A stretch of 63,321 nucleotides of DNA. It comes from a virus (lineage: Duplodnaviria > Caudoviricetes). The notes under the pieces were generated by a model. It saw only the letters and a list, made by a program, of their open reading frames with translations, was not told the origin of the DNA and ran no database searches. The DNA is taken from positions 1 through 63,321 of IMG/VR virus record IMGVR_UViG_3300030117_005840; one strand, 5' to 3'. The translations under genes were made by a program, and so were the position numbers. Positions 10,392-56,330 of the stretch are shown one piece after another (positions within the stretch are counted from its first letter, which is position 1; each line of letters starts with the position of its first letter).

Positions 10392-10421
10392 AAACGCCCA
10401 AAACCCCTATATTAACGAGTC

Positions 10422-22948: not shown

Positions 22949-23405
22949 TTTTAATTCTTTCTCTTTCTGCGGCTTTATATTCATCAGAGCCCCATTCATA
23001 GAATTTAAACTTTTCCGGTTTTTCAGAGCTATGTCTTTCTTCATAGCTATGCGCGAATACTAGCTTGCCTTCATCGTCATATTTTAAATCATACTTACCA
23101 TAGTAACTTTCACTATAACAATCATCCCAAGGTTTAACTGTTTTGCCTGCGTATTCTTTAAAGAATTCTACGTCGTCGTCATCTAAGTTAAACCACTCCC
23201 CCCGTATCCTTTTTTCTTTAAAGTGATCATGCAGGTATTTTTCATCTTCACAGCAACCAACAAAACACAGTAGCAACTCTATCGTGGGCTTCTCTGCCTG
23301 TAATGTCCTTTCCCTATATCTAGGTTTTTGCGATCTACCAATCTTGTAAAAGTTATTGGTAGTATCTTGCATAAGATACACCTGTGTTTCTTTAAACTCA
23401 GCCAT
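22935..23405 (-). CDS. GIY-YIG nuclease (T5orf172/MUG113-like)
   Basis: VYL....YKIG.S..P..R...LQ; E..LH..F...R..GEWF. Confidence 0.85.
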   Translation of the reverse strand: MAEFKETQVYLMQDTTNNFYKIGRSQKPRYRERTLQAEKPTIELLLCFVGCCEDEKYLHDHFKEKRIRGEWFNLDDDDVEFFKEYAGKTVKPWDDCYSESYYGKYDLKYDDEGKLVFAHSYEERHSSEKPEKFKFYEWGSDEYKAAERERIKNEHG

Positions 23406-26407: not shown

Positions 26408-26450
26408 AGCATTTAATATATACTATTTAAATTGCTATAGTTCAAGTTGG

Positions 26451-32234: not shown

Positions 32235-35200
32235 GTGCCAGACGCTCCTATTCCACCACTTGGTGGGGTCAATGACCCCGTATTATCTCCTATTAAACAG
32301 GAGGACACGTTCAATGATTATGAATCATGGTCAAATGCCCGAGGGATGACCACTGAGGAGCCGGTTGAAAGCATAAGAAACTACGCAGATTATGTAAGGG
32401 AGTGGCACCTCAATACAGGCGAGCTGACTGACGAGATCGACGCGTCGATAAATACCGCCTTACTGCAAAAAGCACAGCAAATAGGAGCTATAGGGACTCC
32501 TGACGTAGACCCTGATTTTGAGGCTAACGCGGTAAACTTAGTAGGTGCACGTGATATTTCCTCTGACAGAAAGATTTCTCTTGTGCGTCAAGCGTTAGGG
32601 GATTTAGAGGCAGATAACTTTTCACAGAAGTTAGAAGCAGACCCTACAGACCCCTACGTCAATAACCGCTTAAATGAATCTAAAGCATTATTAGTTCGCA
32701 CAGGCGAAATCCCATTTGCTACCATTTCAAGTATTGATGGAAACGAGCGGAGTATAATAGGCGGGCCTGCTAGTAGAGGTGCTCATTTAGGGGATGCCTT
32801 TAAACGGTCAGCCATGGCAGGGACTGTCAGTTACGCAGACGCAGCACAAGCACTTAGATTTTCCCAGACCAAGAATAGTGACGGGCTTAATGTTTTTGAA
32901 CAGCAGGAACTGTCCGAATTAATGGTCGAGATGGCCGCAGCTAAGGCCGATAAATCCAATTACGATGTAATGGGAGGGGCTTTAAAAGATGTAAAAGAAG
33001 CCATTAGTAAAGCCGATAAGATAAACAAAGAGTTCATCGACACGCCTTACAAATCTATAGAGGACGCCAGGGAAGCACTACAACGTCATTATAGCAAGAC
33101 ACGAAATTCTTACGGAGCTAAGGCTCACGGTAGGTTTTCAGATAGGGACATAGGGAGAGCACTTCAGGTATTTGCAGCGCAGGACTTAAACCATTCGGGA
33201 GCATTTGAGTTTTACGATGACCCAGAAGAAGATAACCGGAACATCCGCATGTTTGGTGGTGTGCCTATGGCTCACCCCACGCTCATGCTAAGGCGTGACC
33301 GCTTTGAAAGCGCGGTAGATAAAGACACACGTCTTACGGACGAACAACGTATCTCCTTAAAACAACGCAGACAGGCTTATGTAGCAGGTGCGTTTGACCA
33401 CTATAAAGATATTTTAGATGAAACCAGTGCCACAGGTTCTAAATGGCGGGCTGCTTTGCAGGCAGGACGAGTTAAGGGAACTCCTGATGTAGACATATTA
33501 GATAATTTCTTAGCAGACCCTGAGAATTACAGCCATTTCAAAAACCAATTAACTCAATTCGGATCGTCTATAGAAGCATCGATAGCACAACTTTGGTCAT
33601 TCCCTGCTCAAATATTTGGCAGCTCTTCTGCACGTGAGTATAATGAAAAGGAAGCCAAGGAAGACGCAAGACGCAGAGAAGTTGCAGCCTTGTTCGGGGA
33701 AGAATTCAGTTGGGTGCTAGACGCCGCAGGAACAGCTTCTGCTGTTGTCGTAGATGCTTTGGTATCGTTAGGATTAGCAGCATTTACGGGAGGTGTTGTG
33801 GGTCTGGGTTACCTATCCACACAGGCTGGATCACGTGTGACTGCTAAGGGTTTAGCAAAGAAGTCTATGGGACTTACTTTATTGAAACCCAAATTTTACC
33901 AATCCCCTAAGCAACTTGCTGATGACCTGATAGCCAACAACCTGATTAAGACTTCAGGAACCGACGCTGCCAAAGTCGGAGTGGAGAAGGCTATCGAAGC
34001 ATATACCCGCGCCATGTCTAATCGCTTTATGCGTCAGACTACCATGGCAATTCCATGGGGAACACGTTCAGGTGGTGGGATGTTTGTGTCCGTATATGGC
34101 AGCCTGCCTGATACAATGTCACATGAGGAAAAACATGCCATTGCATTAGGTGCTGGACTAAAGGCAGCGGCATCGACCATCCTTATAACATCAGCATTTA
34201 GCAAGATGGGGTTGGGTGGTTTCGAAGATTCTTTATTGAATCGTGGGCTTTCCTATAAGGAGATGAAACAAGTCCTTACCAAACTATCAGGTCAAAAGGT
34301 AGGAAACAAGGAAGCTGAGGCTTTAATTAAGAGCCGCATGGCAGAGGCTATACACGAATTGGACCGACCCTTTAATAAAGGTGTAGGTAAATTCCTTAAA
34401 GCTAGGGCTAAGGACGCGTTGCCTGAAGGCATGGAGGAGGGTCTGGACGAATTTGTGCAGAGCTTTATTGAAGCCGCTGCGTTGGACGAAGAACGCCCAC
34501 TAATTGAACACATAAATAGAGCGTTAGTAGGAGCGAGAGCGGGAGCCTTGATTGGCGGCACACTCACGCCTGCCATGCGCGCCGTTAACCGGTTCGCTAC
34601 AGGAGCAGGAATAAAAGATGCTGAGTCATACGAGCGCGATCAAATTCAGAATATAATTTCGACACTGGAAGAAAACGACAGCCCATTAGCTGCTGCCGAG
34701 CTACGTAACTGGACACGCACCGCGTTGGCAAGAGGACCACGGGAAGCCCTGCCACCAAGACCTGAAGGCGCGCCCTCACTTGAAGAAGACGTAGAAGCAG
34801 AAGCCACAGAAATCACACCACCCGTAGAAGAAGATGCAGAACTTATTCCAGCATCTCCTGCTAAACAAAAACACCACAGGCAGGTTAACAAAACATTTGC
34901 AAATTACTACGCGACAGATGGAGCGACCATATTACCATCTGTCCTACCGCGCATAACTGATGAGGCTGAACTTCAGGCAGCGCGCAACGACGCCGACTAT
35001 AATATAGATTCGGATGGAGTCATTTATGGAGTCCGCATTGGCGGGACTTGGGTGGGTTTCCCTACGCGGAAAGCTACACGGAAAGATTCGCCCGAAACAT
35101 TAGGGCAGGACGAAATGCCATTCATTGATGAGGTCATGGCACAAGGCGGCCCTTCACCTAGACCGGGATTCCGTAGAGTAAAACGTAAGACAATTATTGA

Positions 35201-38200
35201 ATCGCTTGAAAAGGATGGCGTTGATGAAGACGGTAAAGATAAATACAAAACCGTCGAAAGAGAAGTCGAGGATTTTGAATGGGTTCCTATGTTTGAGCAG
35301 GAAGCCCCTGCAATACCTAAAGCATACACCACTGAAAGTGGCGAAGTGCAATATGAATTCCCTTTCTCAGCAGCGTTGGATAGGCCGGTAGAACAAAAAA
35401 TACAGCAGCTTTTACTGCCTTTAAGTGAGCAGACAAGTTTACCATTAGGTGAAGGTGAGGCTGTAACTGAACCCGACCCATCTGCAATACCGGAATTTGC
35501 TAAGTTAGCCGAAGGCGACGAGCGTGAGCTATTTGAACGTGCGTTGGAAATACTATCCAACTCAATTAAGAATGAAGGGCGTATCCAATCTAAGCCTGTA
35601 ATTGATTGGTTAGATAATCAGTTTGAACGCAACGGCACAATATCTCCTCAATTACTGGATTACATAACTCAGACCATTGAGGTAGCGGTTCAGGAATCAG
35701 GGACGGTGGACTCTGAAATGGCTGATTTCAGGGAAGCCATTTTCACTTCATTCAACACAAGTATGTCTCTCATGCTGGAAGATCGGCTACGTAAAAAGGA
35801 CGTAGCTAAAAACCAGTCTGACCAGTTTACTGACTGGCAGAAAAAGAAAGAGGAAGATGAAAAAGTATACGAACAACTGGAATTCAACTTGAGTGATAAG
35901 GGGCAAGAGGATTTTAATAATGAGGTAACTAGCGCAAGACAGAAGATAAAGGAGCTGTGGGACGTAGACCCCAATACCTTCCCCGAATACGTAAAATTTG
36001 AGGATGAGTGGCCTGACGTAGCCGCAGATATATCTCCTGAACTATTGGAAAAGTGGAAAAACCGTATAACGGAATTCTATACTAGATACCTGAACCCTAA
36101 TTTGTTTGCGGGTGAACCTATTTCCAAAGCAGAGGACAAACGCTACTTAGATCATAAGAACATATTAAACGACTATAAAAATAGGGAGGGTGCTTTTTCA
36201 GATGGAGCAGTAGAAAATCTGTATGACGAAATACTTGATGCAGAGCGGTTCATTCTACAAGCATACGACCTTTATATCCAGAACCCCGAAGGGCAGAGCA
36301 TTATAGCACTACCTAAAGAACAAGCTGGCAACCAAATCCTAATCGTAGAAGATACATCCAAGATTAATTTTGAAGAGGGTGTAATAGGTGATTCGCAATT
36401 CGCATTTAACATAGGGCCAATAAAGAGGCTTGAGGCGGCACCCGCCGAAGATGAAGCCGTCATAGATGATATGACAGAGGTTGAGATAGGCGTAAACCTA
36501 GAAGACGCTGATTCATCTACCGAATATGCTGAATACTTATATTTCGCGTTAGAGGAGGTGCGCAATAAGGAAGACTATGATGACGAGGGAGCGGATAAGT
36601 CAGTAATAGAAACCGCCGGTTTCCGAGAACTAGCTAGTTTTTTAAGAGATAAACGTGCAACAGATTCACCTATATTAGCGAATGATAAATTACCCCGTGC
36701 TTCAGTAAAAATACTTGGTGACGAGCTAAAGCGGTTAGCAAATATAGCATCAACGGCAGATGGGTATGCGTCGGTAGTTGATCCGCTCAACAACAAAGCG
36801 GATGAGATTCTAGCGAACTTAAAAGCTACTAAGCCCACCACCCCCACCGCTTCGACGGTGATTGAAAGTAAGATCAGTCGGACTGAAGATGGTGGAAGAG
36901 AAGATGAACTTTCATTAGATGTCGCAACTCTAGGATTAAACATCTTTGGAGGGCATACATTGGAGGGATCAGATAAAGCTGACTCATCAGCCAATTTACG
37001 CTTCGATAATGCACTGAATGCTGAGATGCAGCTTTGGAAGTCAGAGGCGGTTAGTCGTTGGGAGAGAGCTTTCGAGTTAGGCGATAAGGAAGCCATGAGG
37101 GTTGAGAATACATATTTAGCTGCGCTAAACTCTGGTTCTCTATCGGGGCGGTTCGGCGGCAGCTTCGTCGGTATGTCTTTTATAGGTAATTTAAGCGCAT
37201 CGGATGGCATTCCTATAGCCCTTTTAGAGAGGTTATATTCTGATATAAAAGAGTCATATGAATATTGGAGGGGTGCTAAAAAATATGATTGGTTCCTCCC
37301 AGATGTAGTGCGGAGGGACAAGCATCCCGAAGACGTAGACTTATTAAGGGATAAGCTAAAGTTACTCAGCGATCATTTATCAGAAGTAAGGAATGATCCC
37401 AGCCAGCTATCGCCTAATTCACAAGAAGAATTACCTATATTCGTCGGAAACACAGACACAGAGGATTACCATTATAACGCATCATGGAAGAAAGCCGGAG
37501 GTAATGACTTATATATAGAAATAGATACAGGGTTTATCGCAGACCCATTGGAAAAAGCAGCCGCTGATAAGTTCGTTGGTGCCTTCAGCAGACTTAAAGT
37601 TGAGAAGGTGGGCGAAGGCACCGGAAGGCATATAAGATGGCGCGCTACCTTGGATGGCGAGACTTTAACTAAGAATGATGGGAGTGAGGCTATCTTCAAG
37701 AAACTGAAAGAGGCCAAAGAATTTGTATTCAACGACGATAATACTCAGCCCCCAGACGAATTAACTGTCCTTTTAAATAACGTCGTATACGAACCAACTT
37801 CAGCTCTCCCAGACCCTAAGTTTATAGTTGCCTCTGGGCTAAGGACGCGTTTCCTGACGGAAGAGGACAAAGCGGAGATACTAGCAAGACCGGATGCAGC
37901 CGCTGCGGAACCAGTTACTGATGGCATCACCGTCTTTAATAGTAAGTGGTCAACAGAGCGGTTAGAAACTGAACACGGCACCGAAAGATTCCCCAAAGAA
38001 ACGCAGCAAGGACGCTTGGATAACGCCAGAGACTATTTCGGTTCCGGCTATGAGCTAGGTTTGTCGGGAGCGCAGTATGAAGCCCCCAGATGGAAATGGA
38101 TTTATGAACTGACTGCCTTCAAAGAAGGGTATGCAAGTGGTCGTGAACAATCTGACGCGGACGAAACTCTCGAAACATCAATAGGTTCATACGAACCATC

Positions 38201-41200
38201 TCCTAATTCAGTTTACTCAACCCATCTTAGTGGGGATGACGGCGGTGACCACATCCAACCCTTGCTGAGCGGAGCCAATTCAACAGAGGAGAGGCAAGCC
38301 ATTCTGTCTGAATGGACGAAAAGAAACCCATTAGCATCTGCCCAGCTAAGTTCATTTATGACCAAGTGGGCTAGGATAATGGCTTATAGACCAATCTTCG
38401 TAACAAAGAAAGAGGATGGCACATCTGTTTATACCTACCATGAGGATTGGGAGGCAATGGTTGCAGAGGAGTCGGAGAGACTCCGCAAAGAAAACCCCGA
38501 TATAACTGAAGTCGAGGCGTATGATAACGCAGCTAAGTCCCTTATAGGTGACGATTACAGAGAGCGCATGCGCTACGCATCATTACTGAACAGCGCAGTT
38601 CTTGGAGGTTTTGAAGAAACCCGCATGCCTAGTGGTTATAAGGAGGATGAAATACCTATTTTGGATGAGCCGGATATGTATTTCGGTATTAACTCAAGCG
38701 TCCTTGAGGAGTATAAGCAAGAAGCTGAAACAAATATTAGAGAGGAATACAACCTATCACTTAATTCAACATTGGTTGGGTATGAAGAGTATATAAGGCT
38801 AGAGCAGCAAAGACTGGCTGAGGTAGCTTGGTCGGAAAAGATGACTCAAAACCCAACGGGAGTTATGGCTGAGGCCGACGCTCCCTTGTTGGTTAAAGCT
38901 ATTTCTTCTGTTTTAGCTATAGCAGAATCCCCCGGCTCACCTTTGAATGGAAGAGGGTTAAACACAGATATATCAACTGATAGCTTTAAGAAGGTTCTTG
39001 AGATGGCAGATGAAGCCGCGCCTTTCTCAGAGTTTGTCGAGTTCCTTGAGTCGGATGAAATGTTCGGTGAATCTGAGGCAACCCAAGAAGCTATTAACGG
39101 TATACTCAACTACTTGGGTTACGACTCTGTTATTGATCTTCGGGCAGTTGATCCGATGCAGCCAAGTGGAATGCGGAGAGACACGCCAGCCACACTTGTG
39201 GTATTTGATTCACGCCGCGTGAAGTCCGGCAACCCAATCACATTTGACGATGATGGGCAGATCATACTACCCGAAGACCGAATTGATTTAAGGGATTACG
39301 ATGAGCGCAGGACACAAGTAGCTGCTTTTGAGTCAACCACCCCGCCGCCAATGATTTCAGGAACCCATAATGGGATGGAGGCTATCGCGGCAGATGATTC
39401 AGAAAACACAGCAACTGATATAAAGCGCAGGGTTAACGACAACGTAGGACTAGCATTAGACGTAGCTTCATCGAATGGAGTAAACACAACGGTTGTCCGC
39501 AGCTTAGATTACGCGCCCGGAGGCTCTAAACAGAATGCACCCCCTATGTGGGCGAAGGGTAATATGGTCTACATCAACCCTTACGGAGTAGCCCGAGCCA
39601 TAAGTGGATTGCAGGATAAAGATGCCCTGCACTTATCCGTTACGATGGTCAGTGAGGAGATGGCGCACGTAGCCAGTTGGAACGTCCTTACAAGGGCTGA
39701 AGTTCAGGAAGTAATCGATAGCTTAGGTGACGGTGACTTTACAGATATAGCAGATGAATATTACCAAGACCAATCCTCTAAAGAGGCTTCGTTTGCGAGA
39801 CTCAACTCACCTGACCCTACCGTATCCGGTAAGGAAAAGTATAGGCTAATTGAGGAGAAGATGCGTATGCACGCACAACGAGTGGTGCGTGGCTTTACTA
39901 CTGAAGAAGATAACAAGTTTTTTAGGAGTAACCCCAATCTGCTCCAGCGTGCAATCCGTTACATGAAAGGATTCCTACGCCGGTTACTTGAGCTTCGTAA
40001 AGTCCAACGCCAGAACCCTCATCTCGCCAGAGCGACTGACCGCATTGTTACCCAATTAAGGATGATGAGAGGTAACTTCAAAGCTCCAGATATAGAGCCG
40101 TTTGATGTTAACAATCCTGAATCCGGTATGGTGGCTCTTGCAACTCAGATCGATAGCACGGCAGAGCTAAATGATACGTCGATGATTCCGGTAAAGTATG
40201 ACGAGGATGATAATATTATCCAACAGCCATATGACTTGTTAGGTTCTCCATTGCTCACTGGTAAAGGGTTCAGGAATAAGGGTGCAAGGGATTTCACAAA
40301 GCCCGACTACGTGGAACTACCCTATGCCGTAATTAAACCTGACAGGGCTAAAGTAGAAGCTGCTATCGACAGTGGAGCCATAGACCGAGCCGCCGCATTG
40401 CTTGCCAAACAAGCTGAGGAATCACTTAGTGACCCCGAACTGCCTGAAGATATCGGGCAGGCACGCTTCGGTGTATGGGGAGCGCGCTCACTCCGTAGAC
40501 TTTTATATAAAGCACCCGTTAAAGCATCCCAATCCCGTTGGCGTATCCAACCACCAGCCGAGCAGGGTATATCCGGTGGGGACTTACTAGCAGCAGAACT
40601 GATCTTTAACAGGGCAGCTAAACAATTGGATATGGATACTGCGGAACTACACGCGGTTATGCAGTTTGCTGAGAAAAAGATATGGGCAGGTAATGGATGG
40701 GTTGACGATGTAGGTGTAAAGGAACCCGAGGACACCGCCCTACATACTTCGATCTCATTGGTGGGTGTGCCGGATGATGCGAGCGAAGCCATAGAGAACA
40801 TAAGGTCTTTAGGAACCACTGCGGTGGCCTTTGCAGGTCTTTCAAATGAACCGGTAACAGCAGTGCGCCCTTCCAGTTTAGGGTTCCCTAAAGAATGGGA
40901 TGCTGCATACGACAGTTTTAAAGAGGTAGCAGAGAGGGGAGGACTCCCTATCGGTGTAGAGAACATCTACTTTAAAGTGAAGCCGGGGGTGAACTATAAA
41001 AATGAAGTAGAATTGTCTCTTCTTTGGGTTCCGCATACAATGCAGAGAAAGGGCGTGGCTAAGGCTTTATTAAAAGCCTTATTCAAAAAGGCCGATAAAA
41101 CAGGTGCCATGGTTTCTGCTTTAGCGAAGGCGTATACCACAGACGGCCCCCAAGGAAAGGAACTGGTTTCTTTCTACCAGAGAGCAGGAATGACGGGCGT

Positions 41201-44200
41201 GGGTAGAATGGAACCGCAAGCAATTACCGACCCCGAAGGATTCATTGCCGACACAATAGACTCTTGGCAGGATATAAGAGATAATGAATATGAGGACGAA
41301 CTGGATTGGAGGAAAGCGGATGACAGTCCGTTGACTTCGGAGGAGCAGCGGATATTGACAACCAGCCCTAATGAGTATTATAGCTCAACAGGGTCGAGGG
41401 ATAGATTGACGTTCCCTCTGATAGACCCCGTTCCGTCCGATGAAGCATTGGAAATAGCGGTTAGAAGGAAACAGAAAGATGAGGCTGCGAGACACTACAT
41501 GGATGAGGGTCTTCAAATATACCGCCCATATAGGGGTAAAGAAGATGCCGCTCCAGAAAGTTATTTCCCAGACCTTTACACTTCAATAGGCGACCCACCG
41601 ATACCACCAGCCACGAAACGGTTCGTGGAAGGCGAGATGGGTTCATTCTCTACAGACAAACTTCTGTATACGATTATGAATAACGGTGACCCTTTCACTA
41701 GGGAATCCGCAGAAGCCCTTAATTACACCCTCAACGTCCTGCCGGACATGGATGATGCGGATCGCTTGCGACAGCAGAACCCTGATCTGTCTGAGGAAGA
41801 GATTGAGATGCTGGCAGAATGGCCTTGGGAATCACAACCTACGCCGATTAAGGGATTGAACGCTACCATGGATGATAGGGGTAACCTTTATATAGGTGCG
41901 TTTGAAGACCCAATGACAGGTGAAGTTGAGGGTGAGGGAGGTATGTATGGTTACTTACCCAAGTCGCGTGTAGATGAAGTGTTCGACACCTTCCGCTCAG
42001 GAGCTGCCGTAAACCTGCATCATTTAAAGAAAGCTATAATGGGCACGATGTCAATCGGTGCGCAGGCTCAATCTATACATAAACGAAACTACGAGAAACA
42101 ACCTAAGACGGATGGGGTTCATGCACCGGGAGAAGGGTTCAGGGCACGTCACGGGCGATTATTGCAATATTGGTTTAGAGGAGGCAGAGTATTTCTGGAT
42201 AGCGGAGCCTTTGCGGCATTCTCTGCTAAGAACAATATTCTGGATGCGGGTAGTGTGGATGCGGCTATTAAAGCGGGCTATCCGAAAACTATTGTTGAAC
42301 AGGTATATAACAACCCGAAAAGCTCTCTGCTTAATTGGGAGGAGATAGTATCTTTTTACGAGGAATGGGCTGCGTTATCAATAAACCCAACAGATGCATT
42401 AAACCTTACTGTGGTTGCTCCTGATATAATAGGCGACCCGATAGGCACTAAAGAATTACTAGAGCAGTATAAAGATAGACTGCTAGGTTTAATGGACAAA
42501 GGAGTAACCGTAGTTGTTCCGGCGCAACGACCCAACGCGCCTAGAGACGAGGCATCGTTTGCTGATGCGGTAGGTGATATAACATCTATATTCGGGGAAG
42601 ATTCCCGCAGATGGAACTTCGTTGTAGGCGCACCTTCCGCTAAAGCTGTTTGGTCTAAGAAAGAATTAGAAACTTACGTCGATCAGGTAAGTCGGAATGA
42701 TATACCGGAAAACCAACAAGCATACAGGATTCATATGCTGGGGGCTAATGACGAGCGTGTAAGAGGATTATCTAAAAAATCAACACACGTATTAATTACC
42801 GGAGACACCACAGCCGATTTTGTCAAAGAAGATCAGTTCGATAGAACAGGACGGCCTTTAAGAAAGCTAGAAACAGAAGCCCAATGGAATAAGTATGAGA
42901 AGGTGGCACGCGACTTCGCTAAGATGGGTCAGGCTATCGCAAAATACAGCACAGCCAGACCTTTAACTAGGGGAGCCGGACAACCACTAACGGGTGTGGC
43001 TACCACCCCGACTTCATCGGACGAGCAGCTTGAGCTTTGGTCATCATTAGGAGGTATGGATTTATGGGATAGCCAAGACCCCAACGCTACCAAATTCCCT
43101 GATTGGAACCTTGATATAGCTAAGTTGGATGACCCGAGGATGCGGGGCATAACCATGAGGCATACAGGGGTTTCTGAAGCTACAGCACCAGCGGGGGAGC
43201 GTTTACATATACAACGATATCCTAGCTTCCTTATGTGGGATACGTTCTCCTTTGATAAGGACGAGGATGGCAGGCCGCAGCCTTCAATAAGTGATCCGGT
43301 ATCCGTTAAGGACATGCGGTTATTGAACAATGCTCCTGATACAAATGCTCCTACAATAGTTCGGGAAGCCCATAAGCAGAAAAAGCTAAATGGATTAAGA
43401 TATAGAGGTGCTTTGCTTGATGATATGGGGTTTGATGCAAACACCTTACAGCCCGAGGATATACGAGTTTTAGGGCAATCAGGCCGAAGGACAATTGTCG
43501 AAGTCTCATTGCCAGAAGGCATGAAACAGGTATTCTACTTGTCATCCGGTAGGGGGCGTAAGGCAGGCATCGGTGGGACAACTGCCGGACAGTGGCAACC
43601 GTTCGGTGGGTTCATGGATAATATCAGCCCACGTTCGGGTAATGTTATTCCGAGGTGGTTTATCAAAGATGCAGATTACCTGACATTACCTGATGGCTCT
43701 AATTTAGTTGAAAAATCAGCAGACTGGCTTGAAAGAAACCAAGAAATTGTTTCACAAGCTAGGTTATATGGTAGCGCGTCATTCACTGAAATATCAGAAC
43801 GTCTCGATGAGTTAGTAGAAAAAGTCGCTCCAGATAAACCTATGTGGATTAGTGGCGGCATCAACGCAGCTATTGGAGGAGGCGCATCGCAAGAGGCAAC
43901 TAACATACTACTCAACCGGCATGGAGTTACTAATGTAGTTTATGACCCAGCTAATCGTAGTCCAGAGCATAACGAAGAGGCGGCCAAACTAATTAGAGGC
44001 GGGCAGGCAGATACCGCTACAGTAGCTTCCGTAATGAATAGTGGTGTATCAGACGATGTCAGAGCGCATGCGATTGAATTGGCCGCAGATGCCATCAAGC
44101 CTAATGGCTCTGCTTATTTCTGGGTTACTGAACACGCAGCTAATCGCTACGCCGAATCTTATAGAGGATTTGTAAATCAAGTTAAGAAGAATTTCGGTGA

Positions 44201-47200
44201 AGTAATCACTAACGAATCCACAGCTTATAAAGATGGTGAGCGGATAGGTTCCTATGACCGCCTTATTGTAGCACGTAAACCTATCAAAGAATTAGACGGT
44301 GAAGAACCTGTAGAGTTAGCTTCCAGCATAGGATCACGCCCGCCTACAGATGAGGAGATTCTGAACGCCACTGAATTTCGGCATGTGCTGGACTTGTTCG
44401 ACCTGCCTGTCCTGAAGGCCGGAGGCTATAAGAAGCCTTTCAAATACAAGTTTATGCGGTGGTTAGCGGGATCGTTAGACCCACGTGTCCGCTCGCTTGA
44501 TGACCAGCGTAAGTTTATGATGAACCAATCGTTGCGCACGGTTACCAAGTTCCATGAAAATCTTAAAGCGCAGACTATTGAAGCCTACGGCTCTTTAGGT
44601 AAAGCACCTATAAAGGTTATAGCAGCGGCAATCGGAAACACCAGAGGTGCCCGACCATCTAGCGCAGATGCTAAACGTATAGAGGATTACGTTATGCAAG
44701 GAGTGGCCGCAATAGATGCTAAACTCAAGGAGCAAGAACGTATAGCTAAGAAGGGTGACATAACATACAAGGAAGTTAGGGAAGCCCGCAAGCAGGCGAA
44801 GCAACAGAAAGCCCTACTAGAAGAAGAGGCTAACGCTGAGTATGCAGTTCTAACTGAGCAAGATAGACAACGGATTATCAGGGATCGTGCAGATGCTCTT
44901 GACCTACTCCGAAATGGGAATGACACCATACCCGCCGCGCCTGAACTGGTGGATACCTTGGACAGAATGCGTAAGTATATTGATGCCTTATCAGTTAAGG
45001 TTAAGCAATTATATGGAGTCAGCCCAGAGCTTGAGGCGCGTATCGATGACCAATTGGGAATATACCTTACCCGTAGCTACAGGATATTTAATGAATCAGG
45101 TTGGGCAGATAAAGTTCTCACCGATCCGAGCGAGGAGTTCCAGCGAATAAGGGAGAAAGGTGAAGGTTACTTTAGAGAGCAGTTCATCAATGCGCAGACG
45201 GCTATGCTTTTAGATAAATCTAGAAGGGATAAGTCGAAAGCCTTGAAAGCGAAGGATGAAGTTGCTTTCGCAGATGCGGAAATGTCTGCATCCGAAGCGG
45301 CTGCCATGGCTGAATCTCAATACAATGCATTATCTGAAGGTAATAGGACGTATGGACAACAACAGGTAGAAGCCTTTATTGAAGCCTATAGGAATAAAGG
45401 TTACATGCCCGCAGGTTTAGCGGGCAAGAGTGAAGGGTATAAACCTCTCACCGACAACCTGAAAAGGAAAAAGGATTTAGACCCAAGACTACAGGAACTG
45501 CTGGGCGTTTATGGAGAAGAGAGCTTCTTCGATAACATGTTTAGGACGTTTATGACGTTGTCCACCATGGCTGCCAATCAGAACTTCTTGGTTCGCGTTG
45601 CGGAAATGGGTAGAGAACAAGGGTGGTTGTTAACTCAGGAAGAACTGAATAAGAAAGCAGCGGAAGACCCTGATACATATGGGGGTGGAAACTATGTTGC
45701 CGTAAGACCTAATGTTAGTAGCAACGATAGGAAACCAAATACCTTATATGATCCGTTCGTTAACTACATAGACAGGAAGACAGGAGAAGAATTGGATTAT
45801 GGCAAAGCTAATGTAAGCGTAGCCAGCCCGCTATTCGCGCCCAAGGAGTTCAAGGAAGCAATGGAGAAAACCTTCGAACCTTCCTTAGTAAGCCAAATGC
45901 AGGATGAAGCATCTGAAGTAGCGCAGACCATGCACAAGATAGCGAGCCGCGCCACTGGACTTTCTATGGCAACTAAGACATTAGGTTCCGTAGGTTTCTA
46001 TATCCGCAACATTGCAAGTAACATGTTGTTTTTTGCGCCCGCTCAAGGGTTCTTCAGCTACCGGCACATGACCAAGCACCTTATCAAAGAAGGGCGCAGA
46101 ACCTTGCGGTGGAGTTCGCCTGAAAAGATAGATTCGTATTACGCGGAGCTAGATGCGTTAGGTATCATAGGGGATGAGCTTAGACCATCCGTCCTTAAAG
46201 AGTTAGTTATGGGTGAGACTACGCCTGAAACTATGATGAAGGACTTGGATACCATGTTAGCGGATGCCGAAGGGAATAAAGCATTAAAGCAAAGCAAAAA
46301 GTTCGTCGAGAAACTTCAGGAGCTTTCCCGATCTGTGGATGCTTTCTATAAGATTGCTTACTTCGAACATGAGTTAGATGTCTTACGCAAAGCCCAACGA
46401 AAATCCAGGGACGCGGGTATCAGTGATTCTATATCTGAGTTGTCAGAGTCTGAGTTAAAGCGGGAAGCCGCTCGCAAGGTTTTGATGACGGCACAGAGTT
46501 ACAGCCAAGCTCCTCCATTTGTTAAGGGCGCGCTTAAATCATGGTATGGGGTTGTGTTTGCGCCGTTCCTTCGATTCAAGATTGAAGTCCCCCGTATTAT
46601 GATAAACACGGGTAGGCTTATCTGGGAAGAGATAAAAAGTGATAACAGCGTTATCAGAAATAGGGGCTACAGAAGATTGAGTGGGTTCACATTCGCCGTC
46701 GGTGGATTAGGAACCGGCATGTCTTATCTGATCTCCCATATGTTCGGAGGATTGACGGATGAGGAGGAAGAAGCTAACCGAGCTTCGATGCCACATTATT
46801 TAAGATCACATACGTTCATTACGTATAAGCGTGATGGTGAACTTAGATCACTTGACCTGACTTATATTAATCCGTTCGCTACGATGCTCGACCCAATGAT
46901 GCGTGCGTTCCCTGAGATCATGCGCGGGGATGTGCCTGAAGCTACGCGTGAGTTTATGACTGCGTTATTCGCTAACCAGTTCTTAGATGAGCAGATCATG
47001 TTCGGAACCATACAGTCTATGATTAAGAACAAGAACCCAGATACTGACCAGCCTATTGTGGAAGCTACGGATTCCGCAGAAGATGCGTTATATAAATGGG
47101 GGCGTTTCTTATTTAGTGAAGCTATTGTCCCTCCATCAGTGGAACGTATCGGCAAGGGGAGTGACATAATGCAACTGTTGATGGGCGACAACGCCGCTGG

Positions 47201-47672
47201 CAATTTCGACCCAATCTTCGCATTAGGTAGGGAGTTCTATCCCGCCAGAGAGTATACAATCAAACCGGTTGATCAGCTTGAGCGTTACCTAAGAACCCGA
47301 AGTGAGGAAATGAAAAGGGCTAAGATGCTTACACGCCGTTTAAGATGGGAAAATATCTCAGATGAAGATGTCCGTAAGATAGCACAGAGGGATGTAGAAA
47401 AACGTAAGCGCATCAATAAAGATATGCAGCGCATGTTTAAAGGGTTTGAGAGCATGGGAATTTCCGAAGGTAAGATTTACGATATCGCTAAGTCCAAGAA
47501 CTTTGGTAAGCGTAGGCTCGCGCTCCTGCACAGGGGTTACATGGAACGGCCAGTCTTATCTAAAGAGTTTCAAAGAGAGTTAGTCGGCAAGGGTGAGGAG
47601 TATGCCCGACGACTTCAAATCTTCACAGATGAAGTCAATAAGATGCCGCGCTTCATTCCATTAGATGACTAA
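32235..47672 (+). CDS. Giant polyvalent internal virion/ejection protein with ART-like, peptidase-like, GNAT, TGT/DpdA-like and SAM-MTase-like domains
   Basis: 5145-aa uninterrupted ORF. Gly/Ala TM-like segments and EG.EE..DEF near the N-terminus; GYDS..VVFD..VKS.NP.TFDD; EEMAH; QRKGVA..FY..G; FLDSGAF/APDIIGD/IHMLG; IGGG..YDP.NR..ADTAT..KPNG; C-terminal F.PF..F helical region. Confidence 0.8.
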   Translation: MPDAPIPPLGGVNDPVLSPIKQEDTFNDYESWSNARGMTTEEPVESIRNYADYVREWHLNTGELTDEIDASINTALLQKAQQIGAIGTPDVDPDFEANAVNLVGARDISSDRKISLVRQALGDLEADNFSQKLEADPTDPYVNNRLNESKALLVRTGEIPFATISSIDGNERSIIGGPASRGAHLGDAFKRSAMAGTVSYADAAQALRFSQTKNSDGLNVFEQQELSELMVEMAAAKADKSNYDVMGGALKDVKEAISKADKINKEFIDTPYKSIEDAREALQRHYSKTRNSYGAKAHGRFSDRDIGRALQVFAAQDLNHSGAFEFYDDPEEDNRNIRMFGGVPMAHPTLMLRRDRFESAVDKDTRLTDEQRISLKQRRQAYVAGAFDHYKDILDETSATGSKWRAALQAGRVKGTPDVDILDNFLADPENYSHFKNQLTQFGSSIEASIAQLWSFPAQIFGSSSAREYNEKEAKEDARRREVAALFGEEFSWVLDAAGTASAVVVDALVSLGLAAFTGGVVGLGYLSTQAGSRVTAKGLAKKSMGLTLLKPKFYQSPKQLADDLIANNLIKTSGTDAAKVGVEKAIEAYTRAMSNRFMRQTTMAIPWGTRSGGGMFVSVYGSLPDTMSHEEKHAIALGAGLKAAASTILITSAFSKMGLGGFEDSLLNRGLSYKEMKQVLTKLSGQKVGNKEAEALIKSRMAEAIHELDRPFNKGVGKFLKARAKDALPEGMEEGLDEFVQSFIEAAALDEERPLIEHINRALVGARAGALIGGTLTPAMRAVNRFATGAGIKDAESYERDQIQNIISTLEENDSPLAAAELRNWTRTALARGPREALPPRPEGAPSLEEDVEAEATEITPPVEEDAELIPASPAKQKHHRQVNKTFANYYATDGATILPSVLPRITDEAELQAARNDADYNIDSDGVIYGVRIGGTWVGFPTRKATRKDSPETLGQDEMPFIDEVMAQGGPSPRPGFRRVKRKTIIESLEKDGVDEDGKDKYKTVEREVEDFEWVPMFEQEAPAIPKAYTTESGEVQYEFPFSAALDRPVEQKIQQLLLPLSEQTSLPLGEGEAVTEPDPSAIPEFAKLAEGDERELFERALEILSNSIKNEGRIQSKPVIDWLDNQFERNGTISPQLLDYITQTIEVAVQESGTVDSEMADFREAIFTSFNTSMSLMLEDRLRKKDVAKNQSDQFTDWQKKKEEDEKVYEQLEFNLSDKGQEDFNNEVTSARQKIKELWDVDPNTFPEYVKFEDEWPDVAADISPELLEKWKNRITEFYTRYLNPNLFAGEPISKAEDKRYLDHKNILNDYKNREGAFSDGAVENLYDEILDAERFILQAYDLYIQNPEGQSIIALPKEQAGNQILIVEDTSKINFEEGVIGDSQFAFNIGPIKRLEAAPAEDEAVIDDMTEVEIGVNLEDADSSTEYAEYLYFALEEVRNKEDYDDEGADKSVIETAGFRELASFLRDKRATDSPILANDKLPRASVKILGDELKRLANIASTADGYASVVDPLNNKADEILANLKATKPTTPTASTVIESKISRTEDGGREDELSLDVATLGLNIFGGHTLEGSDKADSSANLRFDNALNAEMQLWKSEAVSRWERAFELGDKEAMRVENTYLAALNSGSLSGRFGGSFVGMSFIGNLSASDGIPIALLERLYSDIKESYEYWRGAKKYDWFLPDVVRRDKHPEDVDLLRDKLKLLSDHLSEVRNDPSQLSPNSQEELPIFVGNTDTEDYHYNASWKKAGGNDLYIEIDTGFIADPLEKAAADKFVGAFSRLKVEKVGEGTGRHIRWRATLDGETLTKNDGSEAIFKKLKEAKEFVFNDDNTQPPDELTVLLNNVVYEPTSALPDPKFIVASGLRTRFLTEEDKAEILARPDAAAAEPVTDGITVFNSKWSTERLETEHGTERFPKETQQGRLDNARDYFGSGYELGLSGAQYEAPRWKWIYELTAFKEGYASGREQSDADETLETSIGSYEPSPNSVYSTHLSGDDGGDHIQPLLSGANSTEERQAILSEWTKRNPLASAQLSSFMTKWARIMAYRPIFVTKKEDGTSVYTYHEDWEAMVAEESERLRKENPDITEVEAYDNAAKSLIGDDYRERMRYASLLNSAVLGGFEETRMPSGYKEDEIPILDEPDMYFGINSSVLEEYKQEAETNIREEYNLSLNSTLVGYEEYIRLEQQRLAEVAWSEKMTQNPTGVMAEADAPLLVKAISSVLAIAESPGSPLNGRGLNTDISTDSFKKVLEMADEAAPFSEFVEFLESDEMFGESEATQEAINGILNYLGYDSVIDLRAVDPMQPSGMRRDTPATLVVFDSRRVKSGNPITFDDDGQIILPEDRIDLRDYDERRTQVAAFESTTPPPMISGTHNGMEAIAADDSENTATDIKRRVNDNVGLALDVASSNGVNTTVVRSLDYAPGGSKQNAPPMWAKGNMVYINPYGVARAISGLQDKDALHLSVTMVSEEMAHVASWNVLTRAEVQEVIDSLGDGDFTDIADEYYQDQSSKEASFARLNSPDPTVSGKEKYRLIEEKMRMHAQRVVRGFTTEEDNKFFRSNPNLLQRAIRYMKGFLRRLLELRKVQRQNPHLARATDRIVTQLRMMRGNFKAPDIEPFDVNNPESGMVALATQIDSTAELNDTSMIPVKYDEDDNIIQQPYDLLGSPLLTGKGFRNKGARDFTKPDYVELPYAVIKPDRAKVEAAIDSGAIDRAAALLAKQAEESLSDPELPEDIGQARFGVWGARSLRRLLYKAPVKASQSRWRIQPPAEQGISGGDLLAAELIFNRAAKQLDMDTAELHAVMQFAEKKIWAGNGWVDDVGVKEPEDTALHTSISLVGVPDDASEAIENIRSLGTTAVAFAGLSNEPVTAVRPSSLGFPKEWDAAYDSFKEVAERGGLPIGVENIYFKVKPGVNYKNEVELSLLWVPHTMQRKGVAKALLKALFKKADKTGAMVSALAKAYTTDGPQGKELVSFYQRAGMTGVGRMEPQAITDPEGFIADTIDSWQDIRDNEYEDELDWRKADDSPLTSEEQRILTTSPNEYYSSTGSRDRLTFPLIDPVPSDEALEIAVRRKQKDEAARHYMDEGLQIYRPYRGKEDAAPESYFPDLYTSIGDPPIPPATKRFVEGEMGSFSTDKLLYTIMNNGDPFTRESAEALNYTLNVLPDMDDADRLRQQNPDLSEEEIEMLAEWPWESQPTPIKGLNATMDDRGNLYIGAFEDPMTGEVEGEGGMYGYLPKSRVDEVFDTFRSGAAVNLHHLKKAIMGTMSIGAQAQSIHKRNYEKQPKTDGVHAPGEGFRARHGRLLQYWFRGGRVFLDSGAFAAFSAKNNILDAGSVDAAIKAGYPKTIVEQVYNNPKSSLLNWEEIVSFYEEWAALSINPTDALNLTVVAPDIIGDPIGTKELLEQYKDRLLGLMDKGVTVVVPAQRPNAPRDEASFADAVGDITSIFGEDSRRWNFVVGAPSAKAVWSKKELETYVDQVSRNDIPENQQAYRIHMLGANDERVRGLSKKSTHVLITGDTTADFVKEDQFDRTGRPLRKLETEAQWNKYEKVARDFAKMGQAIAKYSTARPLTRGAGQPLTGVATTPTSSDEQLELWSSLGGMDLWDSQDPNATKFPDWNLDIAKLDDPRMRGITMRHTGVSEATAPAGERLHIQRYPSFLMWDTFSFDKDEDGRPQPSISDPVSVKDMRLLNNAPDTNAPTIVREAHKQKKLNGLRYRGALLDDMGFDANTLQPEDIRVLGQSGRRTIVEVSLPEGMKQVFYLSSGRGRKAGIGGTTAGQWQPFGGFMDNISPRSGNVIPRWFIKDADYLTLPDGSNLVEKSADWLERNQEIVSQARLYGSASFTEISERLDELVEKVAPDKPMWISGGINAAIGGGASQEATNILLNRHGVTNVVYDPANRSPEHNEEAAKLIRGGQADTATVASVMNSGVSDDVRAHAIELAADAIKPNGSAYFWVTEHAANRYAESYRGFVNQVKKNFGEVITNESTAYKDGERIGSYDRLIVARKPIKELDGEEPVELASSIGSRPPTDEEILNATEFRHVLDLFDLPVLKAGGYKKPFKYKFMRWLAGSLDPRVRSLDDQRKFMMNQSLRTVTKFHENLKAQTIEAYGSLGKAPIKVIAAAIGNTRGARPSSADAKRIEDYVMQGVAAIDAKLKEQERIAKKGDITYKEVREARKQAKQQKALLEEEANAEYAVLTEQDRQRIIRDRADALDLLRNGNDTIPAAPELVDTLDRMRKYIDALSVKVKQLYGVSPELEARIDDQLGIYLTRSYRIFNESGWADKVLTDPSEEFQRIREKGEGYFREQFINAQTAMLLDKSRRDKSKALKAKDEVAFADAEMSASEAAAMAESQYNALSEGNRTYGQQQVEAFIEAYRNKGYMPAGLAGKSEGYKPLTDNLKRKKDLDPRLQELLGVYGEESFFDNMFRTFMTLSTMAANQNFLVRVAEMGREQGWLLTQEELNKKAAEDPDTYGGGNYVAVRPNVSSNDRKPNTLYDPFVNYIDRKTGEELDYGKANVSVASPLFAPKEFKEAMEKTFEPSLVSQMQDEASEVAQTMHKIASRATGLSMATKTLGSVGFYIRNIASNMLFFAPAQGFFSYRHMTKHLIKEGRRTLRWSSPEKIDSYYAELDALGIIGDELRPSVLKELVMGETTPETMMKDLDTMLADAEGNKALKQSKKFVEKLQELSRSVDAFYKIAYFEHELDVLRKAQRKSRDAGISDSISELSESELKREAARKVLMTAQSYSQAPPFVKGALKSWYGVVFAPFLRFKIEVPRIMINTGRLIWEEIKSDNSVIRNRGYRRLSGFTFAVGGLGTGMSYLISHMFGGLTDEEEEANRASMPHYLRSHTFITYKRDGELRSLDLTYINPFATMLDPMMRAFPEIMRGDVPEATREFMTALFANQFLDEQIMFGTIQSMIKNKNPDTDQPIVEATDSAEDALYKWGRFLFSEAIVPPSVERIGKGSDIMQLLMGDNAAGNFDPIFALGREFYPAREYTIKPVDQLERYLRTRSEEMKRAKMLTRRLRWENISDEDVRKIAQRDVEKRKRINKDMQRMFKGFESMGISEGKIYDIAKSKNFGKRRLALLHRGYMERPVLSKEFQRELVGKGEEYARRLQIFTDEVNKMPRFIPLDD

Positions 47673-52566: not shown

Positions 52567-53667
52567 ATGAAATTACCTTTATGTAAAATCAAACAACTGG
52601 GGCGCATTGCAAAAGCTGCATATGATGCCGGTCGTCAATTCTCAATATATGGACAAGGCGGGACGGGTAAAACAACCGTTCTAAGGGAAGTGGTAGCACC
52701 TGCCTTAAACATTGCGCCAGAGAACGTCTGGCTTGTTAACCTGTCCGGCAGCGCGCCGCAGGAATGCCTAGGCTATGGCATCCCCGATAGCGCAACGCGT
52801 GATATGTGGTTTAGCAGGCCGGAGATATGGCCAACTCCGGACAGGGTGCCGGACGGCACGCGCACAATGCTGATCCTTGATGAGCAAAGTGATTATGATC
52901 CGGCCGTCAATAGCTTATTGCGCGGCCTATTCAACCCGACAGGCGGCCGCAGTAAAGTTGGTTCGCATGAGTTAACGAGTGACTTGTTTGTTTGCTCAAC
53001 CGGTAACCGGCGCACCGATGGATCAAATCGCTCTGGCATTCCATCTGCGCCGCAGGTTGAGCGTGCGGTATCGGTTGAATTACAGCCGGACTTAAACGGT
53101 TGGCTTGAGTGGGCAAGCAACGTGGATGGAATTAAAAATTCACCCTTGCTGGCCTTTCTATCATACTCAAATGGGCTTGAGGGAATCGATCATTTCTGCC
53201 CACCGGTAGAGCAACCGTGGGAAGGTTCGCCGCACCCATGCCCTAGAACGTGGGAAGCGGCCGCGAATATGGAGCGCACGCTTACCGCAGATAATGCAGA
53301 CATCTCGCTTATTAGCCTCGCCATACGTGGCGCAGTTGGCGAGCAAGCAGGTAATGCAGCTTTTGCATTCACTGAAACGGTGCATAAAGATTTACCGTTA
53401 TTGGCGAAAATACGCGCAGGGCAGGCTAACTTACCTGATGATGATCCTAGCCGACAATACGGCCTACTTTATACCGGTATAAGACAATGCTCTAAAGAGA
53501 GCAACGCCGACCCGGAAGCGGCGGTCGCATCCGGCGCAGTTGATTGGCTTGCCGATATGATATGCTCAGCGGCCGGAGATATCCGCGTCTGGGCTTTTGA
53601 ATCTGCAATGCGCGCAGGCTTGCCACTTGATCAGCATCCGCGAAGGGAAGATATGCAAGGCGTTTAA
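52567..53667 (+). CDS. MoxR-type AAA+ ATPase
   Basis: Walker A GQGGTGKT, Walker B ILDE, TGNR, PRTWE. Confidence 0.85.
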   Translation: MKLPLCKIKQLGRIAKAAYDAGRQFSIYGQGGTGKTTVLREVVAPALNIAPENVWLVNLSGSAPQECLGYGIPDSATRDMWFSRPEIWPTPDRVPDGTRTMLILDEQSDYDPAVNSLLRGLFNPTGGRSKVGSHELTSDLFVCSTGNRRTDGSNRSGIPSAPQVERAVSVELQPDLNGWLEWASNVDGIKNSPLLAFLSYSNGLEGIDHFCPPVEQPWEGSPHPCPRTWEAAANMERTLTADNADISLISLAIRGAVGEQAGNAAFAFTETVHKDLPLLAKIRAGQANLPDDDPSRQYGLLYTGIRQCSKESNADPEAAVASGAVDWLADMICSAAGDIRVWAFESAMRAGLPLDQHPRREDMQGV

Positions 53668-54767: not shown

Positions 54768-56330
54768 ATGACATTAAAACCAGAAGTAGATCATTCAATT
54801 GATCAATCAGTTAAGCCGGAATCGCTTGAAAAGGTGATTTTCGCACAAAGCAGCCTAGCCGCACGCGCACTGCGCCGGTTACGGAAACACGCGCCGCGCC
54901 AATATATCAAAGCAATTGCGCTTGATTGGCGTTATTGCGACTTTACACCGTTCGCGGCCACAGATGGCCGTTACTTCTTTGTAAACCGGAAAGGACTGGA
55001 GTATTTAGCAGAGCAAGACGACCCTGTCGGCCTTATTGCATTCTTATTCCTGCATGAAACCTTTCACGCCGAACGCTTGCACCCTTTACGCTTGAGCCCT
55101 GCAAAATATAAGGATAGGCAGCGCGCCAACTTTGCCGCCGATTACGTTACAAACGCGGATATTCACCGGCTTAACGTGGCGGCCGGTATGGTCTGCGCAG
55201 GCCGTTACCCGTTCCCATTAATTGAGGGATGCCTGCATGATCCACAAATTAGCAAAGATTACTCTGTGGAAGAACTTTATAGACGACTTAAGCAACCGGA
55301 ACTCCCAAAGGGAAAAAAGCAGGCGGCAGGCGGGGATCAGGACGGGGATCAGGAAAATGAAACTAATCCCACAGATGCAGGTAATACGGATCAGGACACA
55401 GGCGGCAATGGATCAGATGCCGGTAATGGTGAGATCAAAAGCGAAAATGATGCAGACGGCAAGGAAACTGGAGGTGCGGCCGGAGACTCCGGCGCAGGCG
55501 CGCAGGACGGGGATCAGGCTGCCGACACTAATCCGGAGGCCGGAGGCGCAGATGGCGGCGCGGATCAGGCGGGAACCGGTGCCGGAGGCGGCGCAGGCGT
55601 AAATGATCCATCGCTGTCCAATTTACCCGGAACGGGCGCGCCCGATCTGCGGCAACCAACCGTAAAGCCTAATGAATCATTAGCCGATATTGAGCAAGGA
55701 TTGAAAAAAGAGAATGAGCGGATCAGGCTACAGGAATCATTGCGCAGTATCGGGGACGGTGAGGGCGGTTTTGATAGAGAAGTATTTGATAGGCCGCCTG
55801 TGCGTCTTGATTGGCGGGAATATCTAGCACATTGGCTGCTTGCACGCGCCTGCACAGCTTGGGATAAGCCTATAAACGTGCCAATCTATTCAGCAACCGG
55901 TCTTGTGAGCGCAGGCAGAGATCAGGCAACGCTTGATACGCTTGTGATAGGTATCGACACGTCCGGCAGTGTAAATGATGATGAACAAGGCGAAATGCTT
56001 GCAAGTATCCGGCATGCAGTGGAAACCATTAAATTTGAGACTCTGCACTTACTCGCATGTGATAGCGGTATAAGGCAGCACAATGAAATTCAGGCTTGTG
56101 ATTTGTCGGCAATGCCTAATTACGTGCGGGGCGGCGGCGGCACGCGGTTTAGGCCTGTATTTGATTGGCAGGCAGAGAACGCACCGGATGCGCCTATTAT
56201 ATACCTTACAGACGGGCATTCTTATGACCTGAAAAGCATAAGGGAACCGGACGTTCCGGTTCTGTGGCTATCGTGGGATGCTCCAGTTAATCATTACCCA
56301 TTTGGCGAGGCTGTGCGCATATGGCTATAA
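54768..56330 (+). CDS. Metallopeptidase-vWA protein (DUF2201-like)
   Basis: AATDG, LHETFH (HExxH), N.AAD; Gly/Asp linker; MIDAS DTSGS, GGGT.F.P.F, LTDG. Confidence 0.85.
   Translation: MTLKPEVDHSIDQSVKPESLEKVIFAQSSLAARALRRLRKHAPRQYIKAIALDWRYCDFTPFAATDGRYFFVNRKGLEYLAEQDDPVGLIAFLFLHETFHAERLHPLRLSPAKYKDRQRANFAADYVTNADIHRLNVAAGMVCAGRYPFPLIEGCLHDPQISKDYSVEELYRRLKQPELPKGKKQAAGGDQDGDQENETNPTDAGNTDQDTGGNGSDAGNGEIKSENDADGKETGGAAGDSGAGAQDGDQAADTNPEAGGADGGADQAGTGAGGGAGVNDPSLSNLPGTGAPDLRQPTVKPNESLADIEQGLKKENERIRLQESLRSIGDGEGGFDREVFDRPPVRLDWREYLAHWLLARACTAWDKPINVPIYSATGLVSAGRDQATLDTLVIGIDTSGSVNDDEQGEMLASIRHAVETIKFETLHLLACDSGIRQHNEIQACDLSAMPNYVRGGGGTRFRPVFDWQAENAPDAPIIYLTDGHSYDLKSIREPDVPVLWLSWDAPVNHYPFGEAVRIWL

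Follow-up and report, generated by a model that had tools for sequence, protein, structure and literature searches.

A predicted DpdA-like transglycosylase domain within a giant, putatively polyvalent phage protein

A proposed signature protein of viral 7-deazaguanine DNA modification is DpdA, with bDpdA, DpdA1, DpdA2, DpdA3 and DpdA4 as named subfamilies (PMC10516641); DpdA2 is assigned to phage nt-1, DpdA4 to HVTV-1, DpdA3 to CP220 and a singleton DpdA to phage 7-11 (PMC6884629, PMC10516641). The DpdA of phage 9g alone is described as inserting host-made preQ0 in E. coli, and 76 phages are given as encoding DpdA without the pathway (PMC6884629). For bacterial DpdA, Asp95 is described as general acid/base, Asp130 and His181 as base-recognition residues and Asp256 as nucleophile, with Phe99 and Leu236 stacking on the base; the same source describes all three Asp residues as invariant across DpdA and the tRNA-guanine transglycosylases (TGTs), a structural zinc site (CXCX2CX22H) as conserved in TGT and bacterial DpdA, and the loop after strand 6 as binding the 7-substituent in TGTs (PMC10164549). 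The locus analysed here is a predicted DpdA-like domain within a protein of 5,145 residues, encoded in the IMG/VR virus record IMGVR_UViG_3300030117_005840 (Duplodnaviria; Caudoviricetes), the whole of which (63,321 bp, CheckV completeness 100%) is referred to as the window.

Judged by sequence and model, residues about 3250–3570 of this giant protein are a member of the TGT/DpdA superfamily, a predicted barrel with the full catalytic set. The clade to which the domain is assigned on sequence grounds is apparently undescribed, separate and nearest to phage DpdA1; its members mostly sit as modules in giant phage proteins, and pathway genes almost never accompany them. Taken as a whole, the explanation towards which we lean, by a modest degree, is an intact member of this clade that would exchange guanine for 7-deazaguanine in DNA, using a base supplied by the host and with possible delivery of the protein into the cell.

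The barrel and its active-site residues

The domain query was the translation of window 41940–42980 (347 residues), to which residue numbers such as D87 refer. All motifs of a TGT/DpdA barrel that a sequence-only reading of the window had named were found where it had placed them, in frame and each once in the giant open reading frame (ORF), starting at 42189 (VFLDSGAF, giant residue 3319), 42411 (VVAPDIIGD), 42513 (VVPAQ), 42624 (VGAPS) and 42729 (IHMLG); an additional motif, ITGDTT at 42795, holds the second catalytic Asp. The domain exceeds somewhat the interval 42040–42820 that had been given for it, the modelled barrel with its C-terminal helix covering about 41980–42950. In the following list, residue counts refer to 169 clade domains aligned to the A1 hidden Markov model (HMM) introduced below, 72 from proteins of at least 1,000 residues and 97 from shorter ones, with some redundancy.

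32235–47672, + strand: giant ORF, a candidate multi-domain protein of polyvalent type (5,145 residues, 15.4 kb, GTG start)
41979–42948, + strand: predicted TGT/DpdA-like (beta/alpha)8 barrel and C-terminal helix, giant residues about 3249–3571 (AlphaFold2 model)
42198–42200, + strand: Asp of DSGAF, D87 (D3322 of the giant), predicted general acid/base; D in 169 of 169
42423–42425, + strand: Asp of APDIIGD, D162, predicted base-recognition residue; D in 168 of 169
42525–42527, + strand: Gln of VVPAQ, Q196, where DpdA1 has its base-recognising His; Q in 152, H in 6 and P in 9 of 169
42732–42740, + strand: H-M-L of IHMLG, H265 and L267, equivalent to HGFG of DpdA1; H in 165 and L in 163 of 169
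42804–42806, + strand: Asp of ITGDTT, D289, predicted nucleophile; D in 155 of 169, the others being gaps where rows are truncated (11) or substitutions (3)
F91, stacking position: F in 158 and Y in 9 of 169

Relatives were collected with phmmer from 1.84 billion representative proteins; 95 were found at E ≤ 1e-3, comprising proteins of 250–450 residues and stretches within proteins of 2,000–7,000 residues. The closest relative (P0002, on a 2.4-kb contig) is 53% identical to the query and the remaining ones 27–49%. The query was aligned with 48 shorter relatives (alignment A1, 49 rows), in which D87, G89, Y140, P161, Q196, H265 and G268 are invariant and S88, D162, G165, P194, P232, L267 and D289 are kept in at least 90% of rows; because the motif positions are these invariant or nearly invariant columns of the family, the motifs go beyond chance. 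Phage DpdA1 was represented by alignment A2, made of 13 sequences (the annotated 9g DpdA, eight diverse phage DpdA found by tblastn and four database relatives). With hhalign, A1 matched A2 at 97.3% (E 1.7e-11) over 148 columns running from DSGAF to the nucleophile Asp, the 9g DpdA alone at 93.7% (E 2e-7, 80 columns) and the Salmonella phage 7-11 singleton DpdA at 89.3% (E 2.1e-6, 151 columns), which supports the likeness to phage DpdA seen in the sequence-only reading.

In the register of A1 and A2, D87 corresponds to D72 of 9g DpdA, D162 to the Asp of LDGIGD, Q196 to H141, H265 to His196, the conserved His of the HGFG motif, and D289 to the invariant D215 (CDSS). The Asp residues predicted to serve as acid/base, in base recognition and as nucleophile are therefore all present, aligned with those of DpdA1 and conserved, and their strong conservation across the 169 domains suggests that the copies in giant proteins are catalytically intact. 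Relative to all other clade members in the alignment rows compared (rows that do not include the close relative P0002), the window domain carries an insertion of about 30 residues directly after DSGAF (window 42225–42320, query residues about 96–127), which forms extra helices in the AlphaFold2 model.

AlphaFold2 on A1 gave eight strands alternating with helices (predicted local distance difference test 84.2, predicted template modelling score 0.84), with the conserved residues at or just past the C-terminal ends of strands 3 to 8 of the model. When the model was compared with 48,161 PDB representatives by VIA-align, the top three structures were ArcTGT, DpdA and TGT, as expected for the proposed TGT/DpdA-type TIM barrel. 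Foldseek against the PDB did recover a TGT, that of Z. mobilis (E about 1e-3, with the lowest root mean square deviations), but generic TIM barrels, led by psicose epimerases and class II aldolases, were ranked ahead of it (E about 1e-4), and this search was not decisive.

The Foldseek ranking is one of several results that tell against the assignment. The window domain gave no direct match in Pfam TGT, NCBIfam, PHROGs, PDB sequences or profile, or with the DpdA1 HMM; hhalign of A1 was weak with DpdA4 of HVTV-1 (8%, E 0.0042, 160 columns) and with the candidate DpdA3 of CP220 (9.6%, E 0.0033, 66 columns), and not significant with E. coli TGT (2.8%, E 0.016), where the 24 matched columns fall exactly on TDSGGF. 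The base-recognising His of DpdA1 is a Gln in the window domain, and the structural zinc site is absent from it; it has no Cys at all, the clade alignment has no conserved Cys, and the DpdA1 alignment A2 likewise has no invariant Cys. A generic TIM barrel unrelated to TGT and DpdA, like them in its motifs by chance, would fit both the leading Foldseek matches and the failure to match any TGT model directly. Such a barrel is already disfavoured and appears extremely improbable: the match of A1 to DpdA1 has six motifs in register, all three leading VIA-align structures are of the TGT superfamily, weak reciprocal HMM cross-matches were seen between the clade and DpdA1, one clade member stands in the operon described below, and the Pfam family PF01702 also misses four phage genomes reported to encode DpdA2, DpdA3, DpdA4 or a singleton DpdA.

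The latter comparison was made at E ≤ 1 on five reference phage records (nt-1, NC_021529; HVTV-1, NC_020158; CP220, FN667788; 7-11, NC_015938; phi19:2, KC821621), in none of which PF01702 matched anything; phi19:2 was used as a stand-in for phiST, on our assumption from the shared species name. Since the family misses phages to which a DpdA is assigned, a Pfam miss excludes nothing, and Pfam-based surveys would undercount viral DpdA enzymes. PF01702 was also absent from a six-frame search of the whole record. In the same five genomes, the A1 profile matched only the phage 7-11 protein. Among the A1 members, 27 of 49 matched phrog_887 ('queuine tRNA-ribosyltransferase', best E 2.2e-10), over merely 55–75 residues or so around DSGAF; the window domain did not match it at E ≤ 0.01. 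Another PHROGs family, phrog_15826, was matched by 29 of 49 relatives and was rejected as a clue to identity, as it was found in none of the five reference phages and in no control genome. No match was obtained by tblastn of the window domain and the relative P0009 against 50,697 GenBank phage records. A profile search of a 5.8-billion-protein set gave at least five matches (8,000 candidates), none with an informative name, from which the size of the family cannot be counted.

A clade carried mostly in giant proteins

HMM scores were bimodal: clade members reached 130–340 bits with the A1 HMM and no more than 34 with that of A2, and DpdA1 proteins reached 240–470 bits with the A2 HMM and no more than 23 with that of A1. 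A FastTree phylogeny of 150 clade domains and 9 DpdA1 had poor resolution, with 70 of its 156 inner branches open, and grouped the window domain with P0002 alone. A profile search of IMG/VR with a 10-row sub-alignment of A1 gave 99 confirmed stretches, by which the clade is common in metagenomic viruses, and 80 loci were kept. As the clade is missed by Pfam TGT, and the window copy also by PHROGs and the DpdA1 HMM, surveys with such tools would not count its phages.

The domain lies in a stop-to-stop open frame of at least 1,000 residues at 47 of the 80 viral loci, or 43 of 73 after removal of seven near-duplicate loci, and many of the large frames extend beyond the fetched flank. Flanks of about 550 residues to either side of the domain were scanned (E ≤ 0.001) in 39 of the 43 giants, four being left out. 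Matches were found to ART-PolyVal (two giants), Zeta_toxin (one), LPD1/LPD3/LPD5 (one), LPD23 (one), DarA_C with RadC (one), ddrB-ParB (one), InPase (two), DUF6884 (two), ResIII helicase (one), FtsK gamma (one) and Methyltransf_23 with N6_Mtase (one), as well as to C5 DNA methylase (one strong and five weak) and, below the cut-off, to Mom (one); 17 of the 39 giants had no domain match in their flanks. A polyvalent-type inorganic pyrophosphatase (PF18823) was repeatedly seen fused or adjacent to the DpdA-like module (P0016, P0087, L072 and L083; E 1e-31 to 1e-58), and DUF6884 (E about 1e-23) lies a few hundred residues upstream of the module in two giants (L086, 6351–9107; L087, 1439–4336); no function was evident from the few titles and abstracts listed for it.

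Around the stand-alone members, 139 ORFs were scanned at 28 loci with a containing frame below 1,000 residues (183 ORFs originally, from which those below 115 or of at least 1,400 residues and two duplicates were left out). Portal genes adjoin the clade member at three of the 28 loci, one portal being fused to a Zeta toxin; other neighbours were LPD29, ddrB-ParB, DNA methylases and genes of replication and recombination (RecT, YqaJ, Thy1 and DNA polymerase A). At three loci with mid-size clade members (L027, L031 and L033), a gene for a RelA_SpoT-domain protein lies just upstream of the DpdA-like gene.

In the window giant, only residues about 3130–3750 are common to other proteins or giants, which points to a module shuffled among otherwise unrelated giants. 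Its further features, with the terminase gene that precedes it, are as follows.

40929–41189, + strand: weak GNAT acetyltransferase-like domain, giant residues about 2899–2985
44982–47669, + strand: C-terminal 896 residues with hydrophobic segments, a lead to LPD38-type polyvalent-protein tails
26349–28214, + strand: terminase large subunit (phrog_2, E 8.9e-14), four genes upstream of the giant ORF

The GNAT-like domain is borderline (Pfam Acetyltransf_1, E 6.6e-4, 20.4 bits where the cut-off is 20.7; phrog_1249 acetyltransferase, E 4.8e-4) and is the sole Pfam match in the giant; portal, MuF and LPD domains were not found by Pfam at E ≤ 0.1. The C-terminal 896 residues have no Pfam match. Their ESM Atlas feature scores against viral clusters were 0.97–0.98, to be taken as a lead only, and one of the matched clusters has PF18857 (LPD38) on 92% of its members. 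The terminase gene and the giant are separated by four genes, none of which could be annotated (Pfam/PHROGs, ESM Atlas); the 402-residue product of the gene after the terminase gene had Atlas scores below 0.8, and a portal was not identified.

Polyvalent proteins combine highly disparate enzymatic domains according to the abstract of Iyer 2017, and InPase and ddrB-ParB are assigned by Iyer et al. to packaged phage polyvalent proteins (PMC5512222). The main text of that 2017 catalogue does not mention TGT, queuine, TIM barrel or deazaguanine, and the DpdA-like domain would thus be an enzymatic module that the text leaves unmentioned. In the literature search, no paper was found in which a polyvalent or ejection protein contains a domain of the DpdA or TGT type; a paper naming both DpdA and a polyvalent protein does so in separate contexts, its TGT homologues, occasionally fused to GNAT, belonging to a BREX (bacteriophage exclusion)-related defence system.

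The sequence-only reading had called the giant an ejection protein, which is at most a putative role: no portal, MuF or LPD domain was found by Pfam (E ≤ 0.1), and what points to it is the Atlas lead to LPD38 and analogy with other giants that carry the module beside polyvalent-protein domains. By that analogy, virion delivery may be envisaged. DarB of phage P1 is regarded as a packaged protein that accompanies the DNA into the cell and guards it against restriction, and the window giant, too, might be packaged, enter with the DNA and shield it from restriction, since the domain sits in a polyvalent-type giant encoded just after the terminase gene; equally, it could act late in infection on progeny DNA. 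That the giant is not injected at all, the same enzymology acting late in the cytoplasm on replicated phage DNA and the giant form being a gene fusion, seems to us somewhat unlikely. The lack of the three Pfam domains, the unannotated genes behind the terminase gene and the frequent position of stand-alone members amid replication and recombination genes all fit this view; the occurrence of the module in giants with InPase and ddrB-ParB, and with the ART-PolyVal, DarA_C and LPD domains, polyvalent by their Pfam names, does not, nor do the portal genes at three of 28 stand-alone loci and the LPD38 lead for the C-terminus.

Pathway genes and the proposed base exchange

As the sequence-only reading had noted for folE, queC, queD and queE, the record holds no recognisable deazaguanine pathway. 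In six-frame searches of all 63,321 bp, no match was found to the Pfam families of TGT, QueC, GTP cyclohydrolase I, PTPS/QueD or radical SAM, and the control genomes were matched; nor were pathway genes found among 48 ORFs of the window by Pfam and PHROGs. That reading had taken the missing pathway for a peculiarity of this phage, whereas it proved to be the rule across the clade. QueC (PF06508) exceeded the Pfam cut-off in one of 47 family-bearing records (G034) and in none of 32 further ones, and in neither the window nor a near-identical twin contig of it; the controls, phages 9g and MS1, were both matched. One match below the cut-off was seen (G036, 19.3 bits).

At one locus, L051, a clade member does stand in a pathway operon. 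On one strand, after a DNA polymerase A gene, this operon encodes QueD (5838–6275), QueC (6275–6883, E 2.6e-58), FolE (6870–7406, E 1.6e-63), a radical-SAM protein (QueE, 7393–7986) and then a clade member of 266 residues (7971–8768), which the A1 HMM matches at 172 bits and the A2 HMM does not match, and which aligns directly with the window domain in BLASTP at E 5e-12 with 26% identity.

The domain would exchange guanine in double-stranded DNA for 7-deazaguanine by double displacement, as described for DpdA and TGT. DNA, in preference to tRNA or protein, is a putative target to which the sequence relationship to DpdA1 points. The incoming base would be preQ0 or preQ1 from the queuosine pathway of the host, probably host-made because this phage, like nearly all phages with the clade, encodes no preQ0 pathway. 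This usual home, inside giant proteins and unaccompanied by a pathway, suggests an anti-restriction module that is delivered or fused and draws on host metabolites.

Other observations speak against such a function. QueC above the cut-off is absent from 78 of the 79 other family-bearing records, including all 37 that are at least 90% complete. The operon link rests on the single locus L051, whose protein had no supported position in the FastTree phylogeny and was not placed near the window domain.

A TGT-like enzyme acting on host tRNA after injection, which would exchange or remove G34/Q34 or another guanine and so reprogramme or damage translation, would need no phage pathway, since it would work on host tRNA and base pools. 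The Gln at the base-recognition position is also that of bacterial TGT (Gln203 of Z. mobilis), and the disparate enzymatic content of polyvalent proteins would accommodate such an activity. It nevertheless appears highly doubtful: A1 matches the DNA-acting DpdA1 at 97.3%, against a non-significant 2.8% for E. coli TGT, the clade lacks the zinc subdomain of TGTs, DNA-directed domains are frequent beside the module in other giants (C5 and N6 methylases, Mom-like, ddrB-ParB, FtsK gamma), and one member belongs to a DpdA-type operon beside a DNA polymerase gene.

The rarity of QueC (one of 79 other records) also suits a DpdA fold with another chemistry that involves no free 7-deazaguanine, such as a hydrolytic DNA glycosylase, removal of a modified base of the host or one installed by a defence system, or action on a protein-linked deazaguanine as with Cap10 of the type IV cyclic oligonucleotide-based antiphage signalling system (CBASS). 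In the same direction, the loop after strand 6 is G-x-P-S/F/M in the clade and not Gly-rich. We consider such a chemistry quite unlikely, given that the whole set of exchange residues, including both base-recognition positions and the stacking pair, is strongly conserved, that one member is embedded in an operon for preQ0 synthesis, and that phages with DpdA only are already common among those with accepted DpdA1 enzymes (PMC6884629).

The proposed exchange of guanine in DNA can be extended further. The clade may be a sixth DpdA-like clade that is the cargo of virion-delivered giants and marks the incoming genome with 7-deazaguanine made from host preQ0 or preQ1; we regard this stronger version as unlikely. 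If it were true, this would be the first injected base-exchange anti-restriction enzyme, and it could counterfeit the mark of 'self' used by host Dpd-type systems; the near-absence of a pathway of its own would then be explained.

Surroundings of the giant gene and comparison with known systems

The Pfam and PHROGs scans covered the 48 ORFs of at least 100 residues in the window and identified a family-A DNA polymerase, primase, helicase, exonuclease, large terminase subunit, lysis enzymes and an N6/N4 DNA methylase; none of these ORFs was recognised as a DpdB/ParB-like partner, and the window has no tRNA genes. A family-25 glycosyltransferase gene (9612–10391, Pfam E 2.5e-8) lies among head and structural genes. 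An ORF with a MUG113/T5orf172 domain, typical of homing-endonuclease-like genes, on the minus strand (22935–23405) separates the helicase gene from the exonuclease gene, whose start it overlaps. An ATPase gene (phrog_1297) and a gene for a protein with DUF2201_N (putative metallopeptidase) and DUF2201 (VWA-like) lie near each other (52567–53667 and 54768–56330). A second viral contig (L010, 50,480 bp) carries the same 250-residue stretch with 100% identity at 10001–10750, which indicates that the window phage, or a near-twin of it, has been assembled at least twice.

Among known systems, phage DpdA1 (9g DpdA, phrog_887) shares with the clade the order of motifs (DSGAF, (L/P)D-x-x-GD, P-x-(H/Q), H-x-(F/L)-G and x-D-(S/A)), a length of about 250–320 residues and, in the 9g row, the lack of a visible zinc-binding Cys cluster; the clade differs from it in having Gln for the His of P-x-F-H, in occurring mostly within giant multi-domain proteins and in having QueC alongside in only one of 79 records. 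The bacterial DpdA of the Dpd restriction-modification system (PDB 7UI4) has the same three active-site Asp residues and the stacking Phe/Leu pair, whereas the window domain is phage-borne, fused within a giant protein and devoid of the zinc site and of any Cys. Bacterial and archaeosine TGTs (PF01702) share the predicted fold (structural ranks 1 and 3) and the DSG-x-F motif with the acid/base Asp; unlike them, the window domain has no PF01702 match and no zinc subdomain, and the hhalign match to E. coli TGT is not significant. Phage polyvalent proteins (PMC5512222; for example the DarB type of phage P1) resemble the window giant as very large polypeptides with unrelated enzymatic modules, here a borderline GNAT-like and a DpdA-like one. 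The window giant differs from them in having no hallmark LPD or MuF domain by Pfam, and the DpdA-like module itself is found in other giants together with ART-PolyVal, Zeta_toxin, LPD, DarA_C, ddrB-ParB and InPase.

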